Shown in pieces: positions 4,035 through 45,398 of a stretch of 60,540 nt of DNA (its first letter is position 1; each line of letters begins with the position of its first letter). The position numbers were made by a program, and so were the translations under genes. Under the pieces are notes generated by a model, which saw only the letters and a program-made list of their open reading frames with translations, ran no database searches and was not told where the DNA came from. The stretch is taken from positions 1-60,540 of the forward strand of contig CADCBS010000004.1 in assembly GCA_902799715.1 (NCBI GenBank), written 5' to 3'. The DNA comes from an uncultured bacterium. GTDB taxonomy: Bacteria > Verrucomicrobiota > Kiritimatiellia > RFP12 > UBA1067.

Positions 4035-4097
4035 AGCAACCGGCAAGTCGCCGACAGCGCCGGCTTCGACGCCAAATTGCCGTTTGGCCGCGGGAAA

Positions 4098-4258
4098 TTT
4101 GCCGGGGAAATTGGCCGTGTAGAACATGTAGAATGTGCATACCGGGCATATTGGATATTGGTATTGGCTATTGGCAACATTTCCACATTGGCAACATTCA
4201 TTCTGGTAGGGCGCGTTGTCCCAACGCGCCGCGGCGGCTTGGGACAAGCCGCCCTACC
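4098..4258 (+). repeat. Composite repeat element, copy 1. It has an AT-rich head (TTGCCG..TAGAAC/TAGAAT), an ATTGGN microsatellite, 2 x 17-nt units (4170-4203) and a 54-nt REP palindrome (4205-4258).
   Basis: Direct reading. Same architecture at 4318-4511, 5826-6087 and 31358-31503. Confidence 0.85.
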
Positions 4259-4317
4259 AATCCAACGGTTCAAATGCCCCTTGCTTCAAAATAAGATTAC
4301 GGTGCGTATGATTTTGT

Positions 4318-4511
4318 TCGCCGGGGACAATTTGCCGTGTAGAACATTTAGAATGTGCGTACCAAGCATATTGGAAATTGGTATTGGTATTGGCAACATT
4401 TCCACATTGGCAACATTTCCTCATTGGCAACATTTCCACATTGGCAACATTCATCCTGGTAGGGCGCGTTGTCCCAACGCGCCGCGGCGGCTTGGGACAA
4501 GCCGCCCTACC
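4318..4511 (+). repeat. Composite repeat element, copy 2, with 4 x 17-nt units ATTGGCAACATTTCCAC (4389-4456) and a 54-nt REP palindrome (4458-4511).
   Basis: Direct reading. The REP is identical to 4205-4258. Confidence 0.85.
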
Positions 4512-4539
4512 AATCATTCCATTGTCGATGGAAAGACCA

Positions 4540-4568
4540 TTGCACCGAAGGCGAAATGATGCTACAAT
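4540..4568 (+). promoter_or_regulatory. Sigma70-type promoter: -35 TTGCAC (4540-4545), 17-nt spacer, extended -10 TGcTACAAT (4560-4568).
   Basis: Hexamers and spacing read directly. Lies between the REP hairpin and the ATPase start. Confidence 0.55.
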
Positions 4569-4612
4569 ATCGGGCATGACATTCAAGGATGTGACGATCG
4601 AGGATGACAGAT

Positions 4613-5824
4613 ATGAAAGCCAGTGACATCAGACAAGCGATCGAAGAGCAGAGGAAACTGCGCCGCGGGCGGACCGGAATGGAACGCGACGCATTGCGCG
4701 ACATCGCGTGCGAGGACGGATTCGCGACTATCGTGACCGGCGTCAGGCGCTGCGGAAAATCGACGCTGCTCGGCCAGTGGGCGGAGAAAAGCCGTGCGCG
4801 CACGGCATGCGTCAATTTCGACGACCTGCGCATGAGCGCGTTCGAGACGTCAGACTTTGCCGTGCTGGATTCCGTCGTGCGCGGACTGGGCGCGGATACG
4901 CTGGTACTCGACGAGGTGCAGGACATTCCGGAATGGGAGCGGTTTGTGACGGGATGCCTCGACGCGGGCCGCAAGGTGCTTCTCACCGGCTCCAACGCGA
5001 AGATGCTCAGCCGGGAGCTCGGGACGAAACTGACAGGCCGCCATCTGAACATGGAACTCTATCCATTCTCGTATGCCGAGTTTCTGCGCTTCACGAAAGC
5101 CGCCCCGTCCCCTGCATCGGTAGAGAAGTACGTCGGCACCGGCGGATTCCCGGCATACGTGCGGACGCGGCGCAGGGAAGTGCTGGAGGCGCTTTTCAAC
5201 GACATAATATACCGCGACATAGTCGTGCGCTACCGTCTGCGGAATCCAGTCCCGGTGCGTTCGCTCGCGGCGTATCTGCTGGGGCACGTCGGCGGCAGGG
5301 TGTCGCCGACAAGGCTCAAGGACGCGCTACATGTAAACTCGGCCACTACGCTTCTGGAATACTTCTCCTGCCTCGAAGAGACGTATCTCGTGAGGCGGCT
5401 GCCGAGGTTCGCATCGTCACCGAAGGCGCAGATGTCACATCCCAAGAAGATATACGCCTGCGACACAGGCCTGGTCTCCGCGCTGGCTCCGAGGGACGGT
5501 TCGGACAAAGGCCACAAACTGGAGAACCTTGTATATCTGAAACTTGTCCGCGACGGAGGCTCGCTTTCGTATTTCGCAGACGACGCCGGCGGGACGGAAT
5601 GCGACTTCATACAGGAAATGCGGGACGGAAAGGTGCGCGCCGTGCAGGTCTCCTGGACGCTGTCGGCGGAAAACGAAAAGCGTGAAATCAATGGCGCGAT
5701 CCGTGCGATGGAGCGCTTCGGACTTTGCGAATCGGTTTTGGTGACGCATTCGCAGTCCGATCTCGTGAATGCAGGCGGGCGCACTATAAGAGTTGTTCCC
5801 GCGCACGAATATTTGATGTCTTGA
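4613..5824 (+). CDS. AAA+ ATPase of the AAA_14/DUF4143 family (function unknown).
   Basis: Walker A GVRRCGKSTLL and Walker B LVLDEVQ, with a C-terminal region typical of DUF4143 proteins. GAGGA SD 8 nt before ATG 4613; the ORF is open from ATG 4604. Confidence 0.8.
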   Translation: MKASDIRQAIEEQRKLRRGRTGMERDALRDIACEDGFATIVTGVRRCGKSTLLGQWAEKSRARTACVNFDDLRMSAFETSDFAVLDSVVRGLGADTLVLDEVQDIPEWERFVTGCLDAGRKVLLTGSNAKMLSRELGTKLTGRHLNMELYPFSYAEFLRFTKAAPSPASVEKYVGTGGFPAYVRTRRREVLEALFNDIIYRDIVVRYRLRNPVPVRSLAAYLLGHVGGRVSPTRLKDALHVNSATTLLEYFSCLEETYLVRRLPRFASSPKAQMSHPKKIYACDTGLVSALAPRDGSDKGHKLENLVYLKLVRDGGSLSYFADDAGGTECDFIQEMRDGKVRAVQVSWTLSAENEKREINGAIRAMERFGLCESVLVTHSQSDLVNAGGRTIRVVPAHEYLMS

Positions 5825-5825
5825 A

Positions 5826-6087
5826 GGTAGGGCGCGTTGGTGCGAATGATTTAATTTGCCGGGGAAATTGATCGTGTAGAATGTGCGTACCGCGCATATT
5901 GGACATTGGTATTGGTATTGGTATTGGCAACATTTCCACATTGGCAACATTTCCTCATTGGCAACCTTTCCACATTGGCAACATTTCCACATTGGCAACC
6001 TTTCTACATTGGCAACCTTTCCACATTGGCAACATTTCCTCATTGGCAACATTCATTCTGGTAGGGCGCGTTGTCCCAACGCGCCGC
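5826..6087 (+). repeat. Composite repeat element, copy 3. It has a truncated REP (5826-5840), the AT-rich head with TAGAAT, the ATTGGN microsatellite, 8 x 17-nt units (5923-6058) and a half REP (6060-6087).
   Basis: Units counted base by base: 5923, 5940, 5957, 5974, 5991, 6008, 6025, 6042. Confidence 0.85.
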
Positions 6088-6228
6088 AGCCGACGCGGGC
6101 TGTCGGATGTCGAATGCCGGATGTCGAAACCTTCAACCACGATTTCATCATACGCACGGCAACCCCATTTTGTCCATGTTGCGGCATTTTGACGCAGTGA
6201 GATTACGGTGCGTATGAAATCAAATCAC

Positions 6229-6264
6229 GGGGGAGGGGAGGGGGATTGCGGGGGAGGGGGATTG
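6229..6264 (+). repeat. G-tract cluster (G5,G4,G5,G5,G5) including a GGGGGAGGGGGATTG duplication. Potential G-quadruplex upstream of the 6392 promoter.
   Basis: Five runs of at least 4 G within 36 nt, read directly. Confidence 0.6.
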
Positions 6265-6992: not shown

Positions 6993-8438
6993 ATGAGAGT
7001 CTTGACAGCCTTGATTTCCATGTCTGCGGCCTGTGCAGCCTTCGCCGACGCGCGGGGACACGGCCCGGACGACTTCAAGGTCGAGCTGCGCGAAGTCGGT
7101 GTGATGCCGGCCGCCGACGATGACGGCGAACAGCCGAAAATGTTTCCGGCCGGCTCCCGCATAGTCGTGCCGCCCGGGAAGCTCGCCGTGTTCCATCTCA
7201 AGTACGACTTCCCCGCAGACGTCAAGTCCATGCTGTTTCTCGAGCCGAACTTCAAGGAGTCCGGACTGGACGAGAATCCGTTCGGCACGAGCGGGTCGAG
7301 GCTTTTGTCCGGCAGTGGATCGGTCACGAGAATCGTCATTCTCGGCGCAGGCGGCGCGGAGCCGTACAAGCAGGCGCTGCTGCTGAAGTCGGTTAGGATC
7401 TCCGGCGAAATAGAATCGGCCGAAGGCGCGCCGCGAAACGACTCGTTCTTCATCTGCGACATTCCGGTGAACGTGCTTTTCGCCGACATTCCGGTGAACG
7501 TGCTTTTCGCCGACAGGGAAGAGAACGGCAAGAAAGCGAAGGTGCTCGAGCCGGAGCCATCACCTGCGCCCGATCCGAAGCTCGGCGTCGCGGATTCCGC
7601 GAAGGCGTCCAGGGCAAAGTCGTCCACGCCCGCAGGATTCACCGACAACCTCGACGAGGCGCTCGCCAAGGCGAAAGCCGAAGGCAAGCTCGTCTACGCC
7701 TGCTTCTCCGGCAGCGACTGGTGCGGCTGGTGCATGAAGCTCGAACGCGAAGTGCTGTCCGATCCGCTGTTCGTGGCGGGCGTGGCGGACGACTACGTTC
7801 TCGTGTTCATCGACTCGCCGCAGGACAAGTCGCGGCTCTCGGAACGGGCGAAAGCCGAAAACGCAAAGCTGACGAAAAAATACGGCATACAGGGCTTCCC
7901 GACGGCGCTCATCCTCGACGGCGACGGGAAAAAGATCGCCGAGACCGGCTACCGCAAAGGCGGCGCGGCGGAGTATGCAAAGCATCTCAAATCCATCAAG
8001 GCGGGAGATTTCATGCCAGACGCGAAATGCGGGGAAGAGCCGCAGAAGGCCCGGCCGAAACCGAAGGCGAAAACCGGTGCGCGCGGAACAAGCCCGAAAG
8101 CCGCCGAAACCATGCGCCGCATGAAGGCGATCGTCCTGCCGGAAGTCAAGTTCAGCCCGAAGACGCCGCTCGCCGATGCCATCGGTGCGCTCCGCGACGC
8201 CAGCATCGACCATGACAGCCCCGAAACCCCCAAGGCGGACCGCGGATTCTCCATGATCCTGACGTGGGGGGATGACGGCGTTCCGTCGCTTCCCGAAATC
8301 AAGATGAAGAACGTCCGGTTCCACGACGCGCTGAAAACCGTCTGCGATGCGGTCCGCTACCGGTTCGCCGTCGAAGAAAACGGAGTCATCGTCGTCGAAC
8401 CCGGCGACAACAGCAAGGCAAGGGAGAATCGCCAATGA
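6993..8438 (+). CDS. Secreted thioredoxin-fold protein (WCGWC active site) with a C-terminal paralogous STN-like domain.
   Basis: Signal peptide MRVLTALISMSAACAAFADA after a GGAGA SD. Thioredoxin_7-like segment GKLVYACFSGSDWCGWCMKLEREVL...YGIQGFPTALILDGDGK. The ORF-track start at 6822 overlaps the previous gene and was rejected. Confidence 0.75.
   Translation: MRVLTALISMSAACAAFADARGHGPDDFKVELREVGVMPAADDDGEQPKMFPAGSRIVVPPGKLAVFHLKYDFPADVKSMLFLEPNFKESGLDENPFGTSGSRLLSGSGSVTRIVILGAGGAEPYKQALLLKSVRISGEIESAEGAPRNDSFFICDIPVNVLFADIPVNVLFADREENGKKAKVLEPEPSPAPDPKLGVADSAKASRAKSSTPAGFTDNLDEALAKAKAEGKLVYACFSGSDWCGWCMKLEREVLSDPLFVAGVADDYVLVFIDSPQDKSRLSERAKAENAKLTKKYGIQGFPTALILDGDGKKIAETGYRKGGAAEYAKHLKSIKAGDFMPDAKCGEEPQKARPKPKAKTGARGTSPKAAETMRRMKAIVLPEVKFSPKTPLADAIGALRDASIDHDSPETPKADRGFSMILTWGDDGVPSLPEIKMKNVRFHDALKTVCDAVRYRFAVEENGVIVVEPGDNSKARENRQ
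7458..7511 (+). repeat. Perfect 27-bp tandem duplication inside the coding sequence (DIPVNVLFA x2).
   Basis: gacattccggtgaacgtgcttttcgcc occurs at 7458-7484 and again at 7485-7511. Confidence 0.95.
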
Positions 8439-10615
8439 ACTTGAAAACACTCACACATACAGCGCGGCGCATCCTGCTTGCGGCTGCGGCCGCTGCGGCG
8501 GCGGCCGCGTCCGCGGGGACGGCTGACGTGAAAGTCTATCCGCAAAGCTTCGAGGCGGGCGGATGGGGGCTTGACGCGCAGTTCATGGACGTGATGGGCT
8601 CGCCGTACCTCATCGCGCACGGGCTCGGCGTGCGCGTCCTCGACGCGAAGGCGCGCGTGGCGTTTCCGGCCGCGGGCAGGTACCGCGTGTGGGTGCGCGC
8701 GAAAAACTGGGCCGACGGCGCGCCGGGCCGCTTCCGCGTACTGGTGGACGGCAAGCCGCTCGCCAAAGAGTTCGGCGCGGGGCCGCGCGAATGGACGTGG
8801 GAGGACGGCGGCACCGTAACGGTCGCGAAAGGCGAAGCGACGGTCGCGCTGCGCGACCTCACCGGCTTCGACGGGCGTTGCGCGGGAATAGTGTTCAAGG
8901 CGGACGGGGACGGTCTCCCTCCCGAAGGCCCGCTGAAGATCGACGAATCGAAGGCGGACGAGACGGTGAAGGCCGACTTCGTCGTGGTCGGCGGCGGAAT
9001 GCCGGGGACGTGCGCGGCCGTGGCGGCGGCGCGGCGCGGCATAAAGGTCGCGCTCGTGCAGGACCGCCCGGTGCTGGGCGGCAACGCTTCCGGCGAAATC
9101 CGCGTATACTGCGCGGGCGAGGCGAAGCACGACATCGTGCGCGAGCTGCGCGGCTTTTTCATGAACCGCGACGTGAACACCCCGCTTTGCGACACGCGCC
9201 GGATGCGGATCGTGCAAGACGAGAAGAACATCGACCTGCACCTCTCCACCCGCGCGTTCGGCGTGGAGATGAACGCGGACGGAACCATCGCCGCCGTGAA
9301 GGCGCTCGACCTGAAGACCAACCGCACGATCCGCTTCGAAGCCCCGCTTTTTTGCGATGCGACTGGCGACGGCTGGGTGGGATACTGGGCCGGGGCCGAA
9401 TGGCGCATGGGGCGCGAGGCGAAGAGCGAGTTCGGCGAATCGCGCGCGCCGGAAAAGCCCGACGGCGACACGCTGGGGGCGTCGATCATGTGGACGAGCG
9501 CCGACGCGAACGCGCCCGTACCGTTCTCCGCGCCCTGGGCGGAGCCGCACGCGCAGGGCGTGGTGGCGGTGAACGGCGAGTGGCGCTGGGAATACGGCAT
9601 CCACCGCGACATGATCGCGGAGGGCGAGGAGATTCGCGACAGGATGCTCCTGGCGATCTACGGCGCGTTCTCGCTTGCGAAGAAGCGTCCGGAAAACGCG
9701 AACAAGACGCTGAACTTCTGCCCATACCTGATCGGCAAGCGCGAGTCGCGCCGCCTGATGGGCGACTGGGTGCTTTCGCAGAAGGACGTCGCGGCCAACA
9801 CGCCGTTCAAAGACGCCATCGCGTCCGGCTCGTGGTCGATAGACCTGCACTACGACGGATACAGGCCCGGCGTGGACTTCCTGGCCAGGAACACCGCCGA
9901 CAGCTGCGGACGGTTCTGGATCCCCTACCGCTCCATCTACTCGCGCAACGTTGGCAACCTCTTCATGGCCGGGCGCTGCTTCAGCTGCACGCACGTGGGG
10001 CTGGGCGCGCCGCGCGTGATCTGCACGCTCTCGCAGATGGGCGTGGCGGCGGGCGAAGCGGCGGCGATGTGCCGCGAGCTGGGCGAAACCCCGCGCGGCA
10101 TCTGGAAAAACGGCCACGTGCGCGCGCTCCAGTTGCGGCTCGGCGGCGGCTTCCCCGGCGTGCCCGATCCCAAGACCGCGGGCTGGGCGATAGTCGACGA
10201 CGAATCCAAAGGCGTGACGTTCGGCAAAGGATGGAGAAAGTCCCGCAACCACAACGGCGGGCAGGTCGGCGGATGGACGCACTTTCCGAACAGAAAAGCC
10301 GCGAAGCACGAACCGGCGACATATCCGCTTCCCGTGAAGAAGGCCGGGCGCCACGTCCTCATGGGCAAGGTGCCGTATGCGTATGAAGCGAAGCCCGGCT
10401 CGGCGACTGCGTTCGAAATCGCCTCCGGCGGGAAAAAGACGCCGTTCACGGCCGACCAGGCGCAATCCACCGGACAGTGGGTGAAGCTCGGCGAGTTCGA
10501 CCTCGAACCGGGCGCGACGCTTACCATAATACCTGCGAAGTCGAAAGGCCATGTCGCCGCCGACGGCTTCGCGCTGATATCGCAAGAACAACAGAACAAG
10601 GAGAAAAAGCAATGA
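8435..10615 (+). CDS. Secreted FAD-dependent oxidoreductase (FAD_oxidored family) with N- and C-terminal carbohydrate-binding-like extensions.
   Basis: Dinucleotide-binding motif DFVVVGGGMPGTCAAVAAARRGIKVALVQDRPVLGGNASGE. Signal-like N-terminus. ATGA overlap with the upstream stop. Confidence 0.75.
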   Translation: MNLKTLTHTARRILLAAAAAAAAAASAGTADVKVYPQSFEAGGWGLDAQFMDVMGSPYLIAHGLGVRVLDAKARVAFPAAGRYRVWVRAKNWADGAPGRFRVLVDGKPLAKEFGAGPREWTWEDGGTVTVAKGEATVALRDLTGFDGRCAGIVFKADGDGLPPEGPLKIDESKADETVKADFVVVGGGMPGTCAAVAAARRGIKVALVQDRPVLGGNASGEIRVYCAGEAKHDIVRELRGFFMNRDVNTPLCDTRRMRIVQDEKNIDLHLSTRAFGVEMNADGTIAAVKALDLKTNRTIRFEAPLFCDATGDGWVGYWAGAEWRMGREAKSEFGESRAPEKPDGDTLGASIMWTSADANAPVPFSAPWAEPHAQGVVAVNGEWRWEYGIHRDMIAEGEEIRDRMLLAIYGAFSLAKKRPENANKTLNFCPYLIGKRESRRLMGDWVLSQKDVAANTPFKDAIASGSWSIDLHYDGYRPGVDFLARNTADSCGRFWIPYRSIYSRNVGNLFMAGRCFSCTHVGLGAPRVICTLSQMGVAAGEAAAMCRELGETPRGIWKNGHVRALQLRLGGGFPGVPDPKTAGWAIVDDESKGVTFGKGWRKSRNHNGGQVGGWTHFPNRKAAKHEPATYPLPVKKAGRHVLMGKVPYAYEAKPGSATAFEIASGGKKTPFTADQAQSTGQWVKLGEFDLEPGATLTIIPAKSKGHVAADGFALISQEQQNKEKKQ

Positions 10616-13205
10616 ACATCCCCCCCCCCCCCCCCCCGCAAGGCGCACCCCGCACCGCATAGCCGCGGCGTTTTCGCTTGCCCTCGCCTTCGCCGCCAAT
10701 GCGGCGACGCCAATCTACTGGAAAGGCGGCAGCGGAACTGAAGCCGAGCCGCGGGATGTCTACAGCAAGGACAACTGGACGGGCAACAGTTCATATTCCG
10801 GCGGTTCCATCGGTCAAAACCCGACTGGTCAGCACAACTTCCACTTCAAGGCAGATTCGCTCACGTATCTGACCAACTGCAGCCCCTCTGCGGTTTCGGG
10901 CAACATTTGCGAGCAGATGATGTTTCATACCGGCGACTACTCGCTCTGCGGTTTCTTCACAACAAAATCAGCGGTTAATGTCGGAGCCGATGCGGGAGAC
11001 GAAGCTATCGTCACAGTCAACGGCGGCAGCGTTACCGTAGGCGCCGAACTCTATGTGGGCGGTACCAGCACGGCGGGCGGTACTGGAACGCTGACGATAA
11101 ACGGCGGCAACGTCGTGGTGGCGTCAGGCAAAAACACGCTCGCGGGCTTTGCCAGCGGCTCCACGGGCACGATAAACCTCAACGGCGGCGTTCTAACGAC
11201 GATGCGCATCGCAAAGGACAAAGGAAAGGGCTACCTCAACTTCAACGGCGGAACACTCCAGGCGAACGCCGACCATAACGAATACATAAAGAGCGGCATC
11301 ACGGTCACCGTTCTTGCGGGCGGCGGCACGATCGACTGCAACGGCAAGAACATCGCGATTGACGCGCAATGGAGCACCGAGAGCACCGGCGGCATGAACT
11401 TCACGGGCGGCAACGGCAACACGATTTCGATTCCCAATAAAAGAGCCATCACATACCCCGGCATTACATCCATTACGCCTGGTACGCGGCTCGCCGTTTC
11501 CAATTTGAGTTACTCCAAGAATCTCATTTCGAATGGAATCGTCGTCGCGGGCGTCCCGGCGGTTGGCGATGTGATCTTCACCTGCACGAGAGGCGAAGGA
11601 AATACGCTTGATGGCGTCAGCCTCGATAACGTGAAGTGCCCCATCGCGCCGGGAACCACGTTCGCCCTTGACGACAGCACGACGAACATCGTCGTCACGG
11701 CCGTCGGAACGCCGCTTGAGAACTACTGGACTGGCAACGCCGGCGACGGCAACCTCAGCAACCCCGCAAACTGGGCGAACGGTGTGCCGGGGAGCGGCGA
11801 AAGCGCCAACATCATCTGTGCAGCCCCTGCTACGCTGACGAAGGGAGACACGTTCGCGCCGGCTTCCATCACGTTCCTCGAAGGTTGCGCGGCGGTGACG
11901 ATCGACGGCGGCACGGCGTTCGAGAACATCACGGAGATAGTCAGCCTTTCTTCGTCTTCGCATACGATTAATGTTCCTGTCCGCTTCACGGGCGACATTC
12001 AGGTCAAGCAGCCGGCGATGGCGGAGACGAGCGATCTCGCGAAGCCGCATGTAACGTTCGCGGGCGGCGCGTATGCCGCGGCTGGATATTCTATCGAAAG
12101 CGGCAATTCCGCCGCAGTCTATTCTCGCTGCATCTTCGGCAAGTACTACCTTGGCAGCACATCGGCGAGCCGCTGGACGGCACAGTATCAGGGCGGCAGC
12201 AAGCGCGTTTGCGTTGCGGACGGCTCCTCGCTCTATGTTCCGTACGCAGGGAATGTCTCGGAACTCTATGTCGCTGCCGGCGCGAAGGTGGACATTGGTG
12301 ACATGAACACAAGCGGTCGTCCTTCCTACCGGGTTTACGGCGAAATGGCCGTCACCAACTTGACGGCGACAGGCTCAACTGCAATATATGCGACATATGG
12401 TCAGAGTTTGGACACCCCGGGTGTGTTCAAGTTCGGCACGGTCACGAATGAGATGTCGAACACCAAAGGCGTACTGTTCTATTTTGCCGATGGAAATGTG
12501 GCGGGCAGCCATGTGTTCTACATTGGCGAAGGCGGTGTGAACTACAAGACTGCGACAACTACAATATATATCGTCGGGCGCGACAGCGAAGGGAACAGCG
12601 AGACGATTCGTCCGTGGTATTCCGACTTCACCATAGGGGCGCGCCCTGGCGATGACAACCCAGCCGGACTCAGGTTCTTCCGCGATGTCGAGTTCTGCAC
12701 GGACGACGAGAACGGCACAGGGCGGACGATAACGCTGGAAGCGAGAACGCAGGTACAGGCGAATAAGACAGCGGCAATCATGGTCTCCGGCTCGGGAACG
12801 TTGAAGGTGACGCAGCCAGATGAAAATGGCGCCCAGCCGACCGTTACGCTGGCGGGCACGGCGACGCTGGAGTACACGGCGAAGACCGCAGACCTCGGCG
12901 CGGCGTCGATCGCGCTCGGCGCGGGAACGAAATTCGCGTTCCAGAACTCCGGCAGCACGCTCGCGCTTCCTTCGCCCATAACATTGCCGGCGGAAGGCGC
13001 GGCTACGCTACGCATCGACGGCGACAGGCTCAACGCCGGCAACACGCATACGATCGCGACCGGCGTCGAGGCCGACGCCGCCGACCACCTGACCGTCGAT
13101 CCCGAGAGCGCGGCGCTTGACGGACGCAAGGCCACCCTTGCTGTCAAAGACGGCAACCTCGTCCTCGAATTCGAATCCAGGGGCCTGACCATAATCATCA
13201 AGTAG
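10612..13205 (+). CDS. Adhesin-like secreted beta-helix protein with autotransporter-associated beta-strand (PATR-like) repeats. The reading frame is interrupted at the C18 tract (phase-variable OFF state or homopolymer assembly error).
   Basis: ATG 10612 has an AAGGAG SD (10598-10603) and an ATGA overlap with the upstream gene. The frame open from 10638 encodes signal peptide ARRTPHRIAAAFSLALAFAANA and continues into the 762-aa ORF (10917..13205). One extra C restores a single ORF. Confidence 0.7.
10620..10637 (+). repeat. Homopolymeric C18 tract (simple sequence contingency repeat).
   Basis: Counted directly: the final c of line 10561, plus 10, plus 7. Confidence 0.95.
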
Positions 13206-25292: not shown

Positions 25293-28200
25293 TTATGCGA
25301 AAAAACTTGCGCTCTCGCCTTCGCCGAGATTCCCGGCCAGGACAACCGGCCCGGCGCCGGGGGCGACGGACACGCCATCGCCGACCGGCACCCAATCGCG
25401 GCCAGACCTGCGCTCGAGATACGCCGTCACCGCAACGCCTTCAAGTTCCGCCGGGACGGACAGGTTCTTGGCGCAAACCGCGAACCCGCCACTGGACGGG
25501 ACCTGCGCAAGCGCAGGCTCGCACAGCACGAGAGACGTCGCGTCCGTGGGACGCAGGCCCAAGCAGTACGACTTCCACAGCGGAAGCCCGTTCGCGCCCG
25601 TGGATGCAAGCGTACCTTCGCCGCACGTCTCCAGCCCGGCTTCCCCGGTCAGCCAGTCGCCCGGCACTTTCACGTCGAAATCGCCGCCTGCGTCTGCGTC
25701 GGCTATGCGGATGGTGAAGTACGAGGGCGCGACGTACACGAGATTGCCATCCTCGTCGATACTGAACTTGTCGCTTTCGCCTTCCGGGAAGGAGAACTTC
25801 GCGAGGTCTTCAACCTGGAGGCCCGCCCCGGATATGAGCGTGTAGGTCTTGCCGGGGGCGAAGACCGAACCGGACGCAAGCGTGACCGCAACAGTTCCTT
25901 CTTCGGGAAGCGTCAGCGTCTTGTTGGAAGCGATGGCAAGCGTCGTGTCGGTTTTCCCGAGCGTGAACTTCAGCGTCGTGTCGGCGGCGAGCGTCAGGTT
26001 GCCCCCCATCGTGACGGTGCCAGTCTGCGGGAGGGCGAGCGTCGTCCCCGTCGCGAACGAGATCGCGCCTGTCGTGATCCGCTTCCCGGCGTTGATCGCC
26101 AAGGTCGCCGTGTCCTTCACGTTCACCGCGCCGGAGAACGGCGCTCTGTTGCCGTTGTAGCTATCCGTGGTGTAGTGGTTCGCCACGACCGTGCCCTTGC
26201 CGGTGATGTTCACCGGCGTACCGTTGTCGTAGATGCCGGAGTTGAACGTTATCGTATGCCCTTTGCTGTCGCCCCAGCCAGTCGTGTTGAACGTGATATA
26301 GTCGACCTCCGTGCGGAACACTATCGGCAAGGCGATCTCGAAGTCGTTGGTGTACGCCTGGAATTCCGACTTCAAGAGGTTATACGATCTTGCCCAGAAG
26401 CAGCCGGTCGAGTTGCCGGCGATGCCTTGCGGCCCTATGATCCACTTCTGGTACGTCCTGTCCGAAGAAGTGTACAACGAATTGGCGCCGTTGTTCCTGA
26501 GCCCCCCGGCCACGATCACGCCGCCGCCGACAGAGTAGTTGTTGTTGTACTGCGGGTCGAGATCGCCGGACTTGAGGGTTATGAGGCCCGTCACGATGAA
26601 GGCGCCGCCCGTCTCGACCTTGTATACGATATACACACCCGATCCTCCGGTAAACTCAAGGTTGCCGTCCAAAGTGACCGTGGAGTTGGCGCCCACCGCC
26701 ACTTTCGACGTGTCGCTGAACGACGAGGCCGTAAGCGAGCCCGTAAACGTGACGACTCCCGAACCCATCGTAACCGCGCCGAATGCGACGTTGATGTCGG
26801 CATTGACGGTCTTCGCCGAACCGACGCCAGAGAAGTCGAGCGCGTCGCCGGCGCGCGGAACAAGTCCGTTCTTCCAGTTCCCCGGCGTGGAGAAGTTCGC
26901 GTCCATGCCGCCCATCCACACGCCGTAGGGATATGCTTCGGCGCGGTTGCCGATGCAGAGCTTGACGCTTGCGCCGTCGCGGAATATCCAGGCGTCTTTG
27001 CCGCCGGAAACCGCCGAGGCGTCGAGCGTGAAGTTCGAGAGGACGGTGTCCGCCAACGCCGAGGATGCGGTGAAGAGCGTGTATTCGCCGTCCGCGAGAG
27101 CGGAGTCGCCCGCCGCCTTCAGCGTCACCGTGCCGGGACCCGTGAACGCGAGCGTTCCGAAGAGCGCCGCGTCGCCGGAAGCGACAGGCGTCACTTCAAG
27201 CGTCGTCCCCGCCGTGAATGTGGTCTTGCCCGTCGTAAACTTCATGCCGGGGTTGACGGCCAAGGTCGCCGTGTCGTTCACCTTAACTTCGCCGGAATAA
27301 GGGTTCTTGCCGCCGAACGTCTTTGTGACATGGTTGACGACGACCTTGCCCGGTCCTGTAATGTAGACGGGAACGCCCTTGTCGGAGAATCCGGCGTCGA
27401 GCGTAATCGTGTGACCCAAACCGTCAAGACCGGTCGTGTTGTAGGTCCAGCTTTTCGCGTTCTCGCGCAGAACCGTCCAGAGCGAAACCGTGAAATCGTT
27501 CGTCCAAGGCTGGAACTCGGGATTGACCTTGCTGTTGGCGTTGACCCAAAGGCCGTTGTTCTCCGTGGTTCCCGTAATGCCGCCGGGACCGATGACCCAC
27601 TTATGCGTCACAGAATTGTCGTCGAGCGTTGCATAGATATTCTTGGCGCTGTCATTGACGACGCTTCCCGCCACGACCAGACCCGTTCCGGGGCTTGCCT
27701 GCGGACGCAACGCACAGTTCGATCCGGCCGCAAGGCCGAGCTTGCCCGTCACGATGAACTTGCCGCCGGCGTTCACCTTGTAGACGGCGTAATGGTCGGC
27801 GCCGTCGACATAAGTCAGCATCAAGTCGCCGTCGACCGTGACGGTCGAGTTCGCGCCGACCGCCACTTTCTCCATTTCGCTGAACGATGCCGCCTTCATC
27901 TTGTCCCCTGTGAAGGTGACGATGCCCGAACCCATCGTGACCGCGCCGAGCGCGGCGTCGATGTCGCCTTCGATAGTAGCCGCAGCAGTTACGCCGGAGA
28001 AGTCTACGGCCTCTCCCGCGACGGGAGCCGTTTCGTCAAGCCAGTTGGCGTCCGTAGACATCTTGCCGTCGCCCGCGAATCCGGTCCATGCGTTCCCGGG
28101 GAGGTTGCCGACATTGAGAAGAAGAACGCCATCTTTGACCATCCACGAATACACTTCGCCGCCTGTCGACGGAACGAGTCTGTCCTGCACGTCTGCGGCC

Positions 28201-31200
28201 GCCACATTGCCGGAGAATATCCTGTAGACGCCCTTCGCGAACGCCGAGCCGCCCTTCAAGAGCGTGACGTCGCCGGACGCGGGAAGCGCTATGGACGTTA
28301 TCGCGACGGGCGCGCCGCCGGCCACATCAAGCGTCGTGCCGCCCGCAAACGAAAGCGGACGCGACAGCGTCGCCACGCTCTCGCCGAGCGCGAGCGTGCC
28401 CTCGTTCACGTTCAGAGCGCCGGTGGCGGTCTGGTTGCGTTGGATGTTGAGGATGCCCGAACCTTTTTTGACGATCGCGCCCTCGCCCTGCGGGTCAGCC
28501 TGCAAATTGCAGGTGAAGGCCTGCGTATCGATCGTGAGCCCGCCCGCGCCGATTGTCATCGGCGTCGAGGACGGCCCGAAGTTCTGATGCGTTCCTATCG
28601 ACCAGCTGTCGGCGGCTGAGAGGACGAGCGTCGAATTGTCGAAACGCGCCGAGTTCGCAGGCCTGTCGTGAAAGACCTTGAAGCACTTCGCCGTGATTAC
28701 GCTGTCGACGAAATCTGCCGTGTAGAAGCCCGCGGTGTTCGCGCCTACTACATTGTGCCCGAGGTTGATTATACCCGTTCCGACATCGAGGACGGAGTTC
28801 GTCATCGCAAGCGAGAACTTGGGTTCGAGCGGGTTCCTGTTGCCTGAGTCGTAGCCGATATGGAGATTCTTGTTGTTCGCGACCCTGAACGTGGAATTGC
28901 TGAACATCATGTACATTTCAGGCGTATCGGCCTCAGTCGTGTTGTCGCGGCACGTCATTATGTATGTTTCGCCGCCGGTCTGGAAAAGGCCGCCGTCCGT
29001 GACATTGAACCGGAGCGTCCCACGACGCGAGTTCTGCATGAACCAGTTGTTGCCGTTTTCGTCCGAAACCATCTGGCCGCCGAAGATATTGACCGTTGTG
29101 TCCGAATCGACGTTCGCGTCGTACGAGGCATTCCACGTATAGCGGGCCGACGACCTAAACACGGCGTCTTTCGCAATCGTAAGGACGGCAGGAGCCGCGG
29201 CTCCGTTAAAACCGGGATTCGCCGTAGTATGGAATGTACCGTTCGCGAGAGTGACGTCCATGCCGGGAGCCATGTAGCGGTTCGCGGCGACGGAAAAATC
29301 GGTGGAAAGCGTCTCGCCGTCGCAGTCGAGCGCGACCGGCTTTGAAGGATCCGTGCCGAGCGTCAGTTTCGCGGGAGCGACCGTCGCGCCGGAAAGGACC
29401 TTGAGCGTCCCTTCCGTGACTGTCGTCTGCTCCGTGCGGCTTGCGCCAAGGGCGAGCGTGCCCGCGCCCTTCTTCTCGATCGCGCCGGCCATGGGGGCCG
29501 TAACGGTCGCCGTGACGCCCTGCGCGACCGAAACCGACGGGACGGTGAGGGTGGCAGCGCCGTCCACGGTCGCGTTGTCGCGAAATACGATTTCGTTCAC
29601 AGCCGCGTTCGCAGCGAGCGTCGCCGCCGCGCCGTCCGTCGCGAAGATGGCGTTGTTGCCATCCTCCCAGTCTGCGGCGGCAGAATTCCTGTCCCATGCA
29701 CCCGTATCGTCCCAGCTTGTCCCGCTGCCATTCCAAGTGTAGTCGTCGGCAGTGATCGTGAGCGTGAGCGCACCGTTCACGACCGCGACCTCATGGGGAA
29801 GCGCGACAGCGCCGAATGTCGGGTTGACATTGAACTTTGCCGCGTCATCCGTCTCGAAAAGTGCAAATGTCGTGCCTGCGGCGGGTGCGGCGGTGAAGTT
29901 GAGGTTGATTGTGGCAGGATTGGCCGCCGTCGCAGTGATGTTCGTCGTCGTGACGGAAATCGCGTCTGTCTCCGTGGCGTTGGCGTCAAGACTGAGGATG
30001 CCGCCAGCGCCAAGAGTGAACGCATCGAGCGTATAGGCCGCAACCGCGCCGTCGCGCGTAAAATAGTCGGTCGTGCCGCCGGAAGCGAGCGTCAAGTCAG
30101 GAGAATCGTCGGTTATCGTCGCGCCTGCGAGTGTCAGGACGCCGCCGTCAGTCGCGGAAAGCACCACTGACGAAGCGGAGAGCGCGCCAGAAAGGGTCAG
30201 GTTGCCGCCCTCGGCGCGGAACGCGGATGCCGCGTAATCCTTTGTTGACGCCCATGTTCCGTTCGATACGACGAGCGGGCCCGTGAACGTCATCTTCTTC
30301 GTGGGCGACGACCCGGTGATGTTATTCCACGTTATAGAGCCGGCGCCGGTCTTCGTGATGCCGCCTGCACCCTTGAGCGCGGAGGAGTTGTCGTCGGTTG
30401 TCAGCGATACGCCGGAGGGGATGTCGATTGTCAGCCCGCCGGACTGTATCTCGTAGATGTCGGTCGTGACGGCGGTGTTCTGCCCGATGAAGCTTTTGTT
30501 GCCGCTGGCACCGGCGTAATGGATCGTCGCGCCGTTGAACTTCACCGAGGGCTGCGGATACAAGTAGGCGTAAATCTGGTGGTACAGTGTCAGGTCTGCG
30601 CCTGAGCCAAAGGTGATCGTGTTTGCGCTGCTCGCCGGAGTGTTGAGATATGACGTCGTCTGCCCGATTGTGATCTGATTCGCAGTAATCTTGGAATCCG
30701 CAACAGACGCCGTCATTTTGAGGGTCTTGTGCTTCTTGCTGTTAGCCTGTTCCATGCCACCGAACGTGATGTTCTTGCCGCTCGGAACCGCCATCTCCGA
30801 GTTGCTCGCCATCGTGAAGCTGATGACTACATCGCGATTGTCCGTGGTGGAACTTGCCCTGGCTGTGAACTTGATGTCCGTAGAAGAGCAAATGAACTTT
30901 CCGTTGTTGAGCGAAACGCTCGTCGTGCCGCCGTAAGTTCCCTCGTTGCTGGCGCGCTTTCCGAAGTAGGGCGTAGACGTTGAGGTGTAGTTTATGGTCG
31001 CGCCGTTTATATTCAGGGTTGTCGTGCCGGCGAGTCCCCACCATCCGCTTGTCTGGTTCACGGTCAGACCGGAGCCGAGCGTCGTCGTGGCATCAGCCAA
31101 TGTCTGGTTGGCGGAAACGTCCAACGTGCCGTTGATCCACGTCTTGCCTTTCAGTCCGTCCGCAGTAGTAATTGACCGTGTGCCGCCGTTAAGGTCTTCG

Positions 31201-31295
31201 TCGGCGACGGCAGTTGTTGCAGCGAAGAGCGCGAAAGCCAACGCGACAGCCGCCTTTGTCGCCGCCGCGCTTATTCTTTTCATTGTCGTTTTCAT
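25293..31295 (-). CDS. Giant (2000 aa) secreted beta-helix surface protein/adhesin-like with PATR-type repeats and an internally duplicated ~389-aa module.
   Basis: Signal peptide MKTTMKRISAAATKAAVALAFALFAATTAVA. Repeats of type KKGAGTLALG...EGTLKV. AGGA SD upstream. Confidence 0.9.
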   Translation of the reverse strand: MKTTMKRISAAATKAAVALAFALFAATTAVADEDLNGGTRSITTADGLKGKTWINGTLDVSANQTLADATTTLGSGLTVNQTSGWWGLAGTTTLNINGATINYTSTSTPYFGKRASNEGTYGGTTSVSLNNGKFICSSTDIKFTARASSTTDNRDVVISFTMASNSEMAVPSGKNITFGGMEQANSKKHKTLKMTASVADSKITANQITIGQTTSYLNTPASSANTITFGSGADLTLYHQIYAYLYPQPSVKFNGATIHYAGASGNKSFIGQNTAVTTDIYEIQSGGLTIDIPSGVSLTTDDNSSALKGAGGITKTGAGSITWNNITGSSPTKKMTFTGPLVVSNGTWASTKDYAASAFRAEGGNLTLSGALSASSVVLSATDGGVLTLAGATITDDSPDLTLASGGTTDYFTRDGAVAAYTLDAFTLGAGGILSLDANATETDAISVTTTNITATAANPATINLNFTAAPAAGTTFALFETDDAAKFNVNPTFGAVALPHEVAVVNGALTLTITADDYTWNGSGTSWDDTGAWDRNSAAADWEDGNNAIFATDGAAATLAANAAVNEIVFRDNATVDGAATLTVPSVSVAQGVTATVTAPMAGAIEKKGAGTLALGASRTEQTTVTEGTLKVLSGATVAPAKLTLGTDPSKPVALDCDGETLSTDFSVAANRYMAPGMDVTLANGTFHTTANPGFNGAAAPAVLTIAKDAVFRSSARYTWNASYDANVDSDTTVNIFGGQMVSDENGNNWFMQNSRRGTLRFNVTDGGLFQTGGETYIMTCRDNTTEADTPEMYMMFSNSTFRVANNKNLHIGYDSGNRNPLEPKFSLAMTNSVLDVGTGIINLGHNVVGANTAGFYTADFVDSVITAKCFKVFHDRPANSARFDNSTLVLSAADSWSIGTHQNFGPSSTPMTIGAGGLTIDTQAFTCNLQADPQGEGAIVKKGSGILNIQRNQTATGALNVNEGTLALGESVATLSRPLSFAGGTTLDVAGGAPVAITSIALPASGDVTLLKGGSAFAKGVYRIFSGNVAAADVQDRLVPSTGGEVYSWMVKDGVLLLNVGNLPGNAWTGFAGDGKMSTDANWLDETAPVAGEAVDFSGVTAAATIEGDIDAALGAVTMGSGIVTFTGDKMKAASFSEMEKVAVGANSTVTVDGDLMLTYVDGADHYAVYKVNAGGKFIVTGKLGLAAGSNCALRPQASPGTGLVVAGSVVNDSAKNIYATLDDNSVTHKWVIGPGGITGTTENNGLWVNANSKVNPEFQPWTNDFTVSLWTVLRENAKSWTYNTTGLDGLGHTITLDAGFSDKGVPVYITGPGKVVVNHVTKTFGGKNPYSGEVKVNDTATLAVNPGMKFTTGKTTFTAGTTLEVTPVASGDAALFGTLAFTGPGTVTLKAAGDSALADGEYTLFTASSALADTVLSNFTLDASAVSGGKDAWIFRDGASVKLCIGNRAEAYPYGVWMGGMDANFSTPGNWKNGLVPRAGDALDFSGVGSAKTVNADINVAFGAVTMGSGVVTFTGSLTASSFSDTSKVAVGANSTVTLDGNLEFTGGSGVYIVYKVETGGAFIVTGLITLKSGDLDPQYNNNYSVGGGVIVAGGLRNNGANSLYTSSDRTYQKWIIGPQGIAGNSTGCFWARSYNLLKSEFQAYTNDFEIALPIVFRTEVDYITFNTTGWGDSKGHTITFNSGIYDNGTPVNITGKGTVVANHYTTDSYNGNRAPFSGAVNVKDTATLAINAGKRITTGAISFATGTTLALPQTGTVTMGGNLTLAADTTLKFTLGKTDTTLAIASNKTLTLPEEGTVAVTLASGSVFAPGKTYTLISGAGLQVEDLAKFSFPEGESDKFSIDEDGNLVYVAPSYFTIRIADADAGGDFDVKVPGDWLTGEAGLETCGEGTLASTGANGLPLWKSYCLGLRPTDATSLVLCEPALAQVPSSGGFAVCAKNLSVPAELEGVAVTAYLERRSGRDWVPVGDGVSVAPGAGPVVLAGNLGEGESASFFA

Positions 31296-31357
31296 TTTTG
31301 TTTTTCCTTTCGGGTTAGTAGTTAGTCAATGGAAAGTGTTTGGGTGTTTGAGTTGTT

Positions 31358-31503
31358 GAATGTTGCCAGTGTGGAAGTGTTGCCAGTACCAGTGTTGCCA
31401 ATTTCCAATTGAGAATTGGTATTGGAATTGGAATTGGATATTTTCACATTGGCAACATTTTACAAGTGTTGGGGCCGGTAGGGCGCGATGACCCCATCGC
31501 GCC
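31358..31503. repeat. Mirrored (back-to-back) copy of the composite repeat. Degenerate 17-nt units point toward the giant gene (31358-31410) and toward the + strand (31441-31470), centred on CCAATTgagAATTGG. A REP variant lies at 31477-31503.
   Basis: Direct reading on both strands. The REP variant GGCGCGATG-accc-CATCGCGCC carries a compensatory T>A / A>T pair relative to GGCGCGTTG-tcc-CAACGCGCC. Confidence 0.75.
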
Positions 31504-31591
31504 GCAAAACAAAAACACCCCGCGCCATCCCGCGTGAAACGCGCAGGAAGGCGTCTGCAACGCGCCGGGAGCGCGTTCTTGCTATGAACGT

Positions 31592-31608
31592 GGGGGGGGG
31601 GGGGGGGG
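31592..31608 (+). repeat. Homopolymeric G17 tract (C17 on the minus strand) in the divergent intergenic region.
   Basis: Counted directly (9 + 8 G). Confidence 0.95.
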
Positions 31609-31834: not shown

Positions 31835-31888
31835 CGCGCGGCGACCGGACGGCAGGACCTGCGCGTCCGGCGCTGGAGACGCACACCA

Positions 31889-45321: not shown

Positions 45322-45398
45322 TGGTGGGGCTGCCGGGAATCGAACCCGGAACCTACGGTTTAGGAAACCGTCGCTCTGTCCAGTTGAGCTACAACCCC
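45322..45398 (-). tRNA. tRNA-Arg (anticodon CCU) with encoded CCA.
   Basis: Cloverleaf folded by hand: acceptor GGGGTTG/CAGCCCC, D-arm GCTC..GAGC with GG, anticodon stem ACGGT/ACCGT with loop TTCCTAA, T-arm CCGGG-TTCGATT-CCCGG, then discriminator A and CCA. Confidence 0.9.

Follow-up and report, generated by a model that had tools for sequence, protein, structure and literature searches.

In Neisseria, every paralogue of the opa family carries CTCTT/CTTCT repeats in the region that codes for the leader peptide, and Jonsson and colleagues are said to have reported in 1991 that the part of pilC that codes for the signal peptide contains a G tract in Neisseria gonorrhoeae and Neisseria meningitidis. 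The tracts of such genes range from G9-20 in pilC and G9-21 in pglA to C10-16 in lgtG, and nalP, which encodes a phase-variable autotransporter, has a genic C9-13 tract (PMC5953494). For Akkermansia muciniphila, the use of homopolymer slippage was predicted in 2011 (PMC3048395), and in 2026 the G9 tract of its gene Amuc_1413 was described as variable, with 8, 9 or 10 G, both in culture and from genome to genome (PMC13055324). Here we describe a run of 18 C that follows the start codon of a gene for a large, predicted-secreted protein in a metagenome-assembled genome (MAG) of a gut/rumen member of the Kiritimatiellae (assembly GCA_902799715.1, contig CADCBS010000004.1, positions 1 to 60,540; this whole 60,540-nt stretch is referred to below as the window). 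Single-base changes in the length of this tract would switch the gene between an intact (ON) and a truncated (OFF) reading frame, and alleles of both kinds occur in closely related assemblies.

A variable poly-C tract behind a start codon

The focal gene is the third cistron of an operon in which a thioredoxin-like gene is followed by a gene for a flavin adenine dinucleotide (FAD) oxidoreductase (Table 1). Its ATG overlaps the TGA of the oxidoreductase gene (10613-10615) as ATGA, and AAC AT stands between the ATG and the tract, which places the first C 8 nt past the A of the start codon. A first-pass annotation, made from the letters alone, had taken ATG 10612 as a genuine start; the AAGGAG motif 8 nt upstream, the ATGA overlap and the choice of this ATG by the gene callers of two other assemblies all agree with that. 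It had also counted 18 C at 10620-10637 and placed a stop at 10660-10662, exactly as the sequence reads. Homopolymers in the window, which has a G+C content of 64.8%, are otherwise at most 7 nt long, apart from a single G17 run at 31592-31608, and dinucleotide-preserving shuffles gave an expectation of 0.03 C12 words per window. The length of the C18 tract is far beyond chance, which is excluded as an explanation.

We modelled the gene with tract lengths from 12 to 25. A full-length product (862-866 aa) was obtained only with 13, 16, 19, 22 or 25 C, while the two remaining phases gave peptides of 14-18 aa or 41-44 aa, and a change of one unit toggled the gene between the full-length and a truncated product. 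With 16, 19 or 22 C the precursor has 863-865 aa and starts with a signal peptide, which bears out the earlier proposal that 19 (or 16 or 22) C would fuse the ATG to the long downstream frame. That frame is open from 10578 to 13205 and has no ATG, GTG or TTG before 10917, as had been claimed for 10638-10917; only the rare codons ATA, ATC, CTG and ATT are found, and no other canonical start is available to the ON frame. The 2.5 kb downstream of the tract are intact, with no second lesion. Because of the frameshift at C18, the list of open reading frames (ORFs) computed for the window begins the focal gene only at ATG 10917, and the public annotation holds a product of 761 aa (P0121) that starts at this same ATG.

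Exact-protein look-ups matched cattle-rumen metagenome assemblies, in which we could compare the locus directly. Near-clonal copies from other rumen metagenomes are 99.9-100% identical to the window across 7-10 kb and differ at the tract, and the upstream oxidoreductase has an identical sequence on six contigs. Compared over 7,617 bp with the window, whose own allele is C18 and OFF, the copy L003 shows one single-nucleotide polymorphism (12743) and a tract that is 2 C shorter (C16, ON); its gene was called from the ATG equivalent to 10612 and encodes 863 aa (P0123) with the N-terminus MNIPPPPPARRTPHR / MNIPPPPPARRTPHRIAAAF. Over 9,777 bp, the differences between L001 and the window are confined to the tract and its 5' edge, where L001 reads ATGAAAA-C24 and is out of frame (OFF). 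A 98%-identical strain (L015) carries ATGAACATA-C19-A-C7 and is in frame (ON; P0001). In L002 the tract is interrupted by a scaffold gap with 33 N inside it, and the contigs L004 and L005 end within it after 9 and 13 C, respectively. A scan of Joint Genome Institute (JGI) metagenomes with the exact flank of the focal tract gave no match.

Across assemblies that are 98-100% identical over 7-10 kb, we thus observed C16, C18, C19 and C24, and the tract was the only indel. The presence of C16, C18 and C24 in near-clonal assemblies makes the tract the sole indel-polymorphic site in ~10 kb, and both ON and OFF alleles are therefore natural. The first-pass proposal of a slipped-strand ON/OFF switch is well supported by these near-clonal alleles and the C19 strain, which cover both phases; its further statement that the gene is currently OFF holds for the assembled consensus and no wider. 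Variation in tract length at the orthologous locus, to which the same proposal had looked, is found in near-clonal and 98%-identical copies, whereas orthologues at 85-87% identity (P0002, P0003, P0122; L008) have no tract at all.

These tract-less orthologues start with MKTP(T/I)K(R/Q)T..RLAAV... and have an ordinary signal peptide, MKTPTKRTARRLAAVLSLAFAFATTGAWA, with its predicted cut before ATAIYWKGG. From the cleavage site onward they and the focal gene are alike (...AATAIYWKGGSGTEAEP... / ATAIYWKGGSGTEAEP...), which shows that the conserved, functional coding frame is the one that follows the tract; the residues encoded at 10704-10916 are conserved in all full-length homologues. Since the L001 allele reads ATG AAA ACC CCC..., which gives MKTPPP, and the orthologous leader begins with MKTP, the Pro codon of such an ordinary leader seems to have expanded into the tract. 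Among GTDB representative genomes we found seven related loci (in Kiritimatiellae, Verrucomicrobia-labelled and RUG MAGs), with sheep rectum and rumen as the sources of the relatives of the focal protein. Only one of the seven has a tract (L014, G10), and tracts are therefore lineage-restricted and not universal.

Table 1. Coordinates of the focal locus and of the second long homopolymer with its flanking genes (position 1 is the first letter of the window)
Feature	Position	Strand	Basis or remark
FAD-dependent oxidoreductase gene with Golvesin_C domain, 726 aa, predicted secreted	8435..10615	+	Pfam PF12831 (E 1.4e-65), PF25275 (E 5e-14)
Shine-Dalgarno motif AAGGAG, 8-nt spacer to start codon	10598..10603	+	sequence
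Start codon ATG of the candidate phase-variable gene	10612..10614	+	chosen by callers in the ON alleles L003 (P0123) and L015 (P0001)
C18 homopolymer tract, candidate hypermutable switch; ON state read as poly-Pro within the signal-peptide n-region	10620..10637	+	
OFF-state 16-codon ORF MNIPPPPPPQGAPRTA, TAG stop at 10660-10662	10612..10662	+	assembled C18
Remaining signal peptide in the ON frame (ARRTPHRIAAAFSLALAFAANA); predicted cleavage after ANA, before ATPIYWKGG	10638..10703	+	translation
Mature predicted-secreted beta-solenoid protein, ~833 aa, stop codon included	10704..13205	+	homologues, AlphaFold2 model
Gene for a 2000-aa predicted-secreted repeat protein, left of the second tract	25293-31295 (ATG 31295)	-	
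Second tract, G17 on the plus strand and C17 on the minus strand	31592..31608		middle of a 593-bp divergent spacer, outside both flanking coding regions
Gene for a 246-aa lipoprotein, right of the second tract	ATG ~31889	+	

Probable slipped-strand switching and its alternatives

We consider it quite probable that the C tract is a contingency switch that works by slipped-strand mispairing and acts at translation. The ATGA overlap, together with a strong Shine-Dalgarno motif, would couple translation of the focal gene to that of the upstream gene. Whenever 8+n is divisible by 3 (n = 16, 19, 22), the ribosome would read MNI-Pro(5-7)-ARRTPHR, a hydrophobic core and the ANA motif with A behind the cut; this ON precursor would be exported, and the variable poly-Pro would be removed together with the signal peptide. 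Because the tract lies in the cleaved n-region, in-frame changes of its length would leave the mature beta-solenoid unaltered. At other lengths translation would end after 14-44 codons and yield no exported protein, possibly with polar effects on the downstream FGGY-kinase and SSF-transporter genes. Replication slippage on a C:G run of 16-24 nt would gain or lose single bases reversibly and at high frequency; the population would thus always mix ON and OFF cells, and selection would shift their ratio, with phage, protozoa, host antibody or substrate as candidate agents.

Several points weigh against this interpretation. At codons 4-10 the ribosome would meet five to seven prolines in a row, on which it should stall and depend on elongation factor P (EF-P), an odd feature for an efficiently expressed gene. 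Short-read (Illumina) consensus is unreliable at G/C runs of 16-24 nt, such that single lengths may be off by at least one, and the unreliability of assemblers at this particular tract is apparent from the gap and the contig breaks that fall there. Some of the ENA, NCBI and Logan assemblies may share source runs. The bases that flank the tract in L001 and L015 also differ, as real alleles or through error, and the gaps and contig ends inside the tract are compatible with heterogeneity without being specific to it.

The alternative that survives best, although we think it improbable, is recoding, in which slippage of RNA polymerase or of the ribosome on the C run would give some in-frame product at any DNA length, and expression would be reduced and tract-dependent but not truly OFF. 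CCC-C motifs are known +1 frameshift sites at which tRNA-Pro can re-pair in any frame, which speaks for such a process, although the C18 allele would require one -1 shift or two +1 shifts. An 18-nt homopolymer is also longer than the RNA:DNA hybrid, so realignment of the transcript would be free of cost; against this, most documented cases of transcriptional slippage concern A/T runs, and G/C runs are held to be less susceptible, according to work cited in PMC5084427. The natural alleles differ in the DNA itself, and in the poly-G leader cassette of the protein family (see below) the stops right behind the tract look selected for tight termination and not for read-through. Recoding could coexist with DNA-level switching, in which case the OFF state would be leaky.

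We regard as unlikely, and somewhat more so than recoding, that the lengths are an artefact of assembly or sequencing, i.e. that the true length of the tract is fixed and in frame (e.g. 16 or 19), with a gene that is always intact, and that the observed lengths are assembler noise. The scaffold gap and the two contig ends in the focal tract, together with a contig start in the second tract, could be expected from such an artefact, but real heterogeneity also yields contig breaks. Lengths of 16-24 nt do exceed what short-read consensus gives reliably, and the flank differences of L001 and L015 may be error. However, L001, L003 and L015 were produced by one pipeline from three BioSamples (STEW19 SAMEA5384001, SAMEA5384007 and SAMEA5383868), and this one pipeline yielded C16, C24 and C19 from the different samples. 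The shorter and more reliable tracts of paralogues vary between samples with identical flanks (G12/G13; G16/G16/G21), and the Gly3, Gly5 and Gly7 leaders within protein clusters are too different for miscounting. G/C runs of at least 16 nt are, moreover, intrinsically unstable in every bacterium studied, which counts against a single fixed length.

A decaying pseudogene, with a one-way frameshift in a dispensable gene or a true start at ATG 10917 that lacks a signal peptide, is highly improbable, since the only point in its favour is a database annotation restricted to the 761-aa product, whereas the 2.5-kb frame has no other lesion, the residues of 10704-10916 are conserved in all full-length homologues, an in-frame allele of the same strain exists (L003), and a start at 10917 would leave the protein without its signal peptide and without the initial strands of the modelled fold.

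The focal protein, its family and the poly-G leaders

The product had been labelled a PATR-repeat adhesin in the first-pass annotation. We dropped this label, as neither PF12951 nor TIGR02601 matches the focal protein; in all, no Pfam family (E<=0.01), no NCBIfam family and no NCBIfam repeat (E<=1) was matched, and what stands of the label is the fold class, weakly. TIGR02601 is passed by the neighbouring 2000-aa protein (21.4 versus a cut-off of 19.85), and TIGR04393 by the paralogue P0045. Our AlphaFold2 model, for which we used P0123, the natural ON allele, with 33 homologues, is confident and all-beta, with a predicted local distance difference test (pLDDT) score of 88.4 and a predicted template modelling (pTM) score of 0.82; residues 1-28 are disordered and the first strand begins at residue 32. 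Its best PDB matches in Foldseek were the passenger beta-helices of SepA, Hbp, IgA1 protease, pertactin, Hap and Ag43, all of them weak (best E 7e-4, template modelling (TM) score ~0.15), and a capybara-gut beta-helix domain was also among the weak matches. The model points weakly to a beta-solenoid similar to autotransporter passengers. We rejected an identity as a type V autotransporter: no C-terminal beta-barrel translocator domain was matched, with Pfam and NCBIfam giving no match to an autotransporter-barrel (translocator) family in the focal protein and Foldseek matching passenger domains only.

On our reading of the sequence, the signal peptide has a typical n-h-c layout and an ANA cleavage motif with A at the next position, and the protein is predicted to be exported or secreted; a surface location is likewise only predicted. 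The focal gene and its relatives neighbour genes for glycoside hydrolases (GH97, GH92, GH123, GH127 and GH106), sulfatases and FAD-oxidoreductases, and a role in glycan capture appears as plausible as one in adhesion. The sole paralogue match within the window was a weak one of 23%, to the 2000-aa protein.

We found 231 homologues of the focal protein (E<=1e-3), all of them unnamed and nearly all from gut metagenomes. Runs of at least three Gly or at least four Pro occur within the first 20 residues of 22 of the 120 listed cluster representatives, and a further 7 of the 120 have an interrupted-run version of the same leader. The common leader reads M-N-(I/V)-I-A-K-N-L-K-Gly(n)-K-T-L-(S/T)-Y-L-L-A-G..., and at the DNA level it corresponds to a cassette, AAGGAGATAA...ATGAAC(A/G)TAATTGC.AAAA..CTCA(A)-Gn-TAAAAC..TAAC.TATCTCCTTGCGGGC, which recurs in many paralogues. 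One OFF frame of this cassette meets TAA directly after the tract, and the other is stopped by GTAAAACCTTAA, three codons further.

The poly-G tracts of the paralogues span G9-G21, and their lengths differ between assemblies of the same locus. At one locus with identical flanks (L016/L017), G12, which is OFF from the ATG behind the Shine-Dalgarno motif, is found versus G13 (ON). At another, again with identical flanks (L018, L019, L022), two independent assemblies carry G16, an OFF length, in contrast to the ON length G21. G10 (ON) is present in L020, L021, L028 and L014, and G12 (OFF) in L027; L027 and L028 are the two loci that a JGI scan with the poly-G cassette returned. Within a single cluster at 90% identity, Gly3, Gly5 and Gly7 leaders occur next to a leader without a tract; one further call uses an alternative start, and four others are cut short within the signal peptide.

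Gene calls in OFF alleles of the family (L018 599-630, L016 10001-10026) start at a TTG in the second frame, 10-20 nt downstream of the ATG that follows the Shine-Dalgarno motif, and the resulting N-termini read MLKTSRGGG... or MQKIQGGGG...; many N-termini of this family in databases are therefore artefacts of tract phase. Behind the poly-G run of L016 (10027-10100), and also of L017, lie ~75 nt without any C, translated NSLKFRVKSEEVRVGG..., before the real signal peptide, and this peptide recurs in the distinct paralogues P0124, P0129, P0133, P0118, P0109, P0150 and P0159. In L027 (2640-2860), the cassette leader (..KTLTYLLAGMFALAASGAWA) continues in frame into a second complete leader (MTRRISASLAIITVLAASSAWA), as if the cassette had been grafted onto a gene with a start codon and signal peptide of its own.

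The focal locus shares with the cassette only the AAGGAG(A)...ATGAACAT start; the flanks on both sides of the tract are otherwise not matched, the tract is poly-C and not poly-G, and the signal peptide belongs to the MKTP..RRLAA type of the tract-less leaders. As the focal poly-C stands outside the shared cassette, the homopolymer switch seems to have arisen independently, at least two times in the family, and a repeated origin of this kind would argue for selection on switchable expression. Extending this to the family, we put forward tentatively, and with less confidence than we place in the switch at the focal gene, that non-pathogenic, uncultured rumen/hindgut Kiritimatiellae may possess a multi-locus 'phasome'. 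Dozens of paralogous predicted-secreted beta-solenoids would be switched independently by G/C homopolymers of 9-24 nt in the cleaved n-region, the switch would have spread as a portable 5' cassette composed of the 5' untranslated region, Shine-Dalgarno motif, ATG, poly-G run and signal peptide, of which the leader of L027 would be an example, and the focal poly-C would be a second origin. The genes of such a phasome would sit among glycoside-hydrolase and sulfatase genes. If true, a free-living gut glycan degrader would share the combinatorial surface variation seen in Neisseria and Campylobacter.

The second long homopolymer of the window is flanked on the plus strand by both flanks of the family cassette, ATGAACGT-G17-TAAAATGC, without the intervening 18 nt, and looks like a collapsed copy of the poly-G leader cassette. 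On the minus strand, an ORF of 134 aa (118 aa from its first ATG) spans the tract at the C17 length only. By look-up of the adjacent giant gene, we found C17 in one other assembly and a contig (L007) that begins inside the tract. The corresponding look-up with the lipoprotein gene returned no allele of this tract, as the contigs break off 43-109 nt upstream of that gene, short of the tract. Two contigs from different pipelines (L024 and L025) both begin at window position 31846, 43 nt upstream of the lipoprotein gene, which suggests a strain-variable or repetitive junction in the spacer around the second tract. We considered the tract as the spacer of a sigma-70-type promoter and found none, the only site being a weak one upstream of it. 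Rfam gave no known RNA element near either tract, and its sole match was a transfer RNA (tRNA) at 45325-45398. The second tract shows that long G/C tracts recur in this genome beside large secreted proteins.

Elsewhere in the window, a repeated module of ~200 bp lies upstream of genes at 4090-4260, 4320-4515 and 5850-6090 (plus strand) and at 31340-31510 (both orientations). It contains a TTGCCG-N15-TAGAAT-like box, runs of the hexamer ATTGG(T), up to 7.7 tandem copies of the 17-bp unit ATTGGCAACATTTCCAC and, behind these, a GGTAGGGCGCG...CGCGCC hairpin; the count of ATTGGCAACA is 18, versus 1.75 expected. Two of these modules enclose a 1.39-kb segment (4452-5838) with a gene of ~400 aa, for whose counterpart in L002 Pfam gives AAA_14/DUF4143. 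Both the window and L002 have this segment and L001 and L004 lack it, a polymorphism that probably arose by recombination between modules. At the end of the contig (60260-60540), a C-rich, G-poor direct repeat of 9-bp CCTCCAGTC units ends in C7; a third long tract at this 3' end was rejected, as L029, a contig that is ~60 nt longer at this end, runs into another copy of the repeat in which the C run is only C9. A G-rich repeat, GGGGAGGGGAGGGGGATTGCGGGGGAGGGGGATTG, is found at 6231-6264 upstream of a 180-aa gene.

Comparison with known phase-variable systems

The switch proposed here is of a classical type, in a lineage and a protein family for which the searched literature holds no earlier report. 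The first-pass annotation had rightly guessed a genome from the Planctomycetes-Verrucomicrobia-Chlamydiae (PVC) superphylum. It had also supposed that such switches were undescribed in this superphylum, which the A. muciniphila cases contradict (PMC3048395; PMC13055324); the supposition stands for the Kiritimatiellae, for which our literature search found no paper that links them to phase variation. Multi-locus phase variation driven by repeats is otherwise known almost only from host-adapted pathogens, and a recent review leaves open whether this reflects biology or a bias of the databases (PMC11868660). The focal family consists of large, uncharacterised, predicted-secreted beta-solenoids within polysaccharide-degradation loci. 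Annotation pipelines truncate or split such genes, as in the public record that starts the focal gene at ATG 10917, and assemblies break at the tracts, such that studies of gene presence/absence or expression with rumen MAGs that ignore tract phase would misread these genes. Such tracts may also offer a handle on surface proteins that are under fluctuating selection in the rumen (by phage, protozoa or host antibody).

The focal gene, whose product is predicted to be exported, resembles pilC, a gene for a surface-associated protein, in having a G/C homopolymer in the 5' coding region, with ON/OFF frameshifts and a comparable range of tract lengths. It differs in that the protein and the phylum are unrelated, the tract begins at codon 3-4 and is read as poly-Pro, translation of the gene is coupled to that of the enzyme gene in front of it, and the host is an uncultured rumen commensal and not a pathogen. 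The logic of the poly-G cassette is that of the opa family, in which paralogous surface proteins each have their own repeat in the signal-peptide region and switch independently while the mature protein is unaffected. The opa genes, however, use a pentamer repeat and encode small beta-barrels, whereas the family described here has homopolymers, and its switchable copies were observed across different assemblies. With nalP, the focal gene shares a genic poly-C tract, its product is predicted to be a secreted beta-helical protein as well, and passenger beta-helices are the best matches of its AlphaFold2 model; unlike the product of nalP, the focal protein has no match to a translocator barrel or to PATR, its fold match is weak (E 7e-4, TM ~0.15), and it is not an autotransporter.

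The poly-G phasome of Campylobacter jejuni (PMC6321876) is similar in that many G/C homopolymers lie in genes for surface structures and that length polymorphism between strains is diagnostic. There, other gene families are involved, and G tracts stand out against an AT-rich genome, whereas the focal genome has 65% G+C. Akkermansia muciniphila is, like the host of the focal gene, a gut member of the PVC superphylum, and its Amuc_1413 has a variable genic poly-G tract that truncates a protein related to the cell envelope. The tract of Amuc_1413 is short (8-10) and lies ~55 codons into an exopolysaccharide (EPS)-export gene, whereas the tracts at the focal locus have 16-24 nt, are placed in the n-region of the signal peptide, and belong to a large paralogous family in a different class, the Kiritimatiellae.

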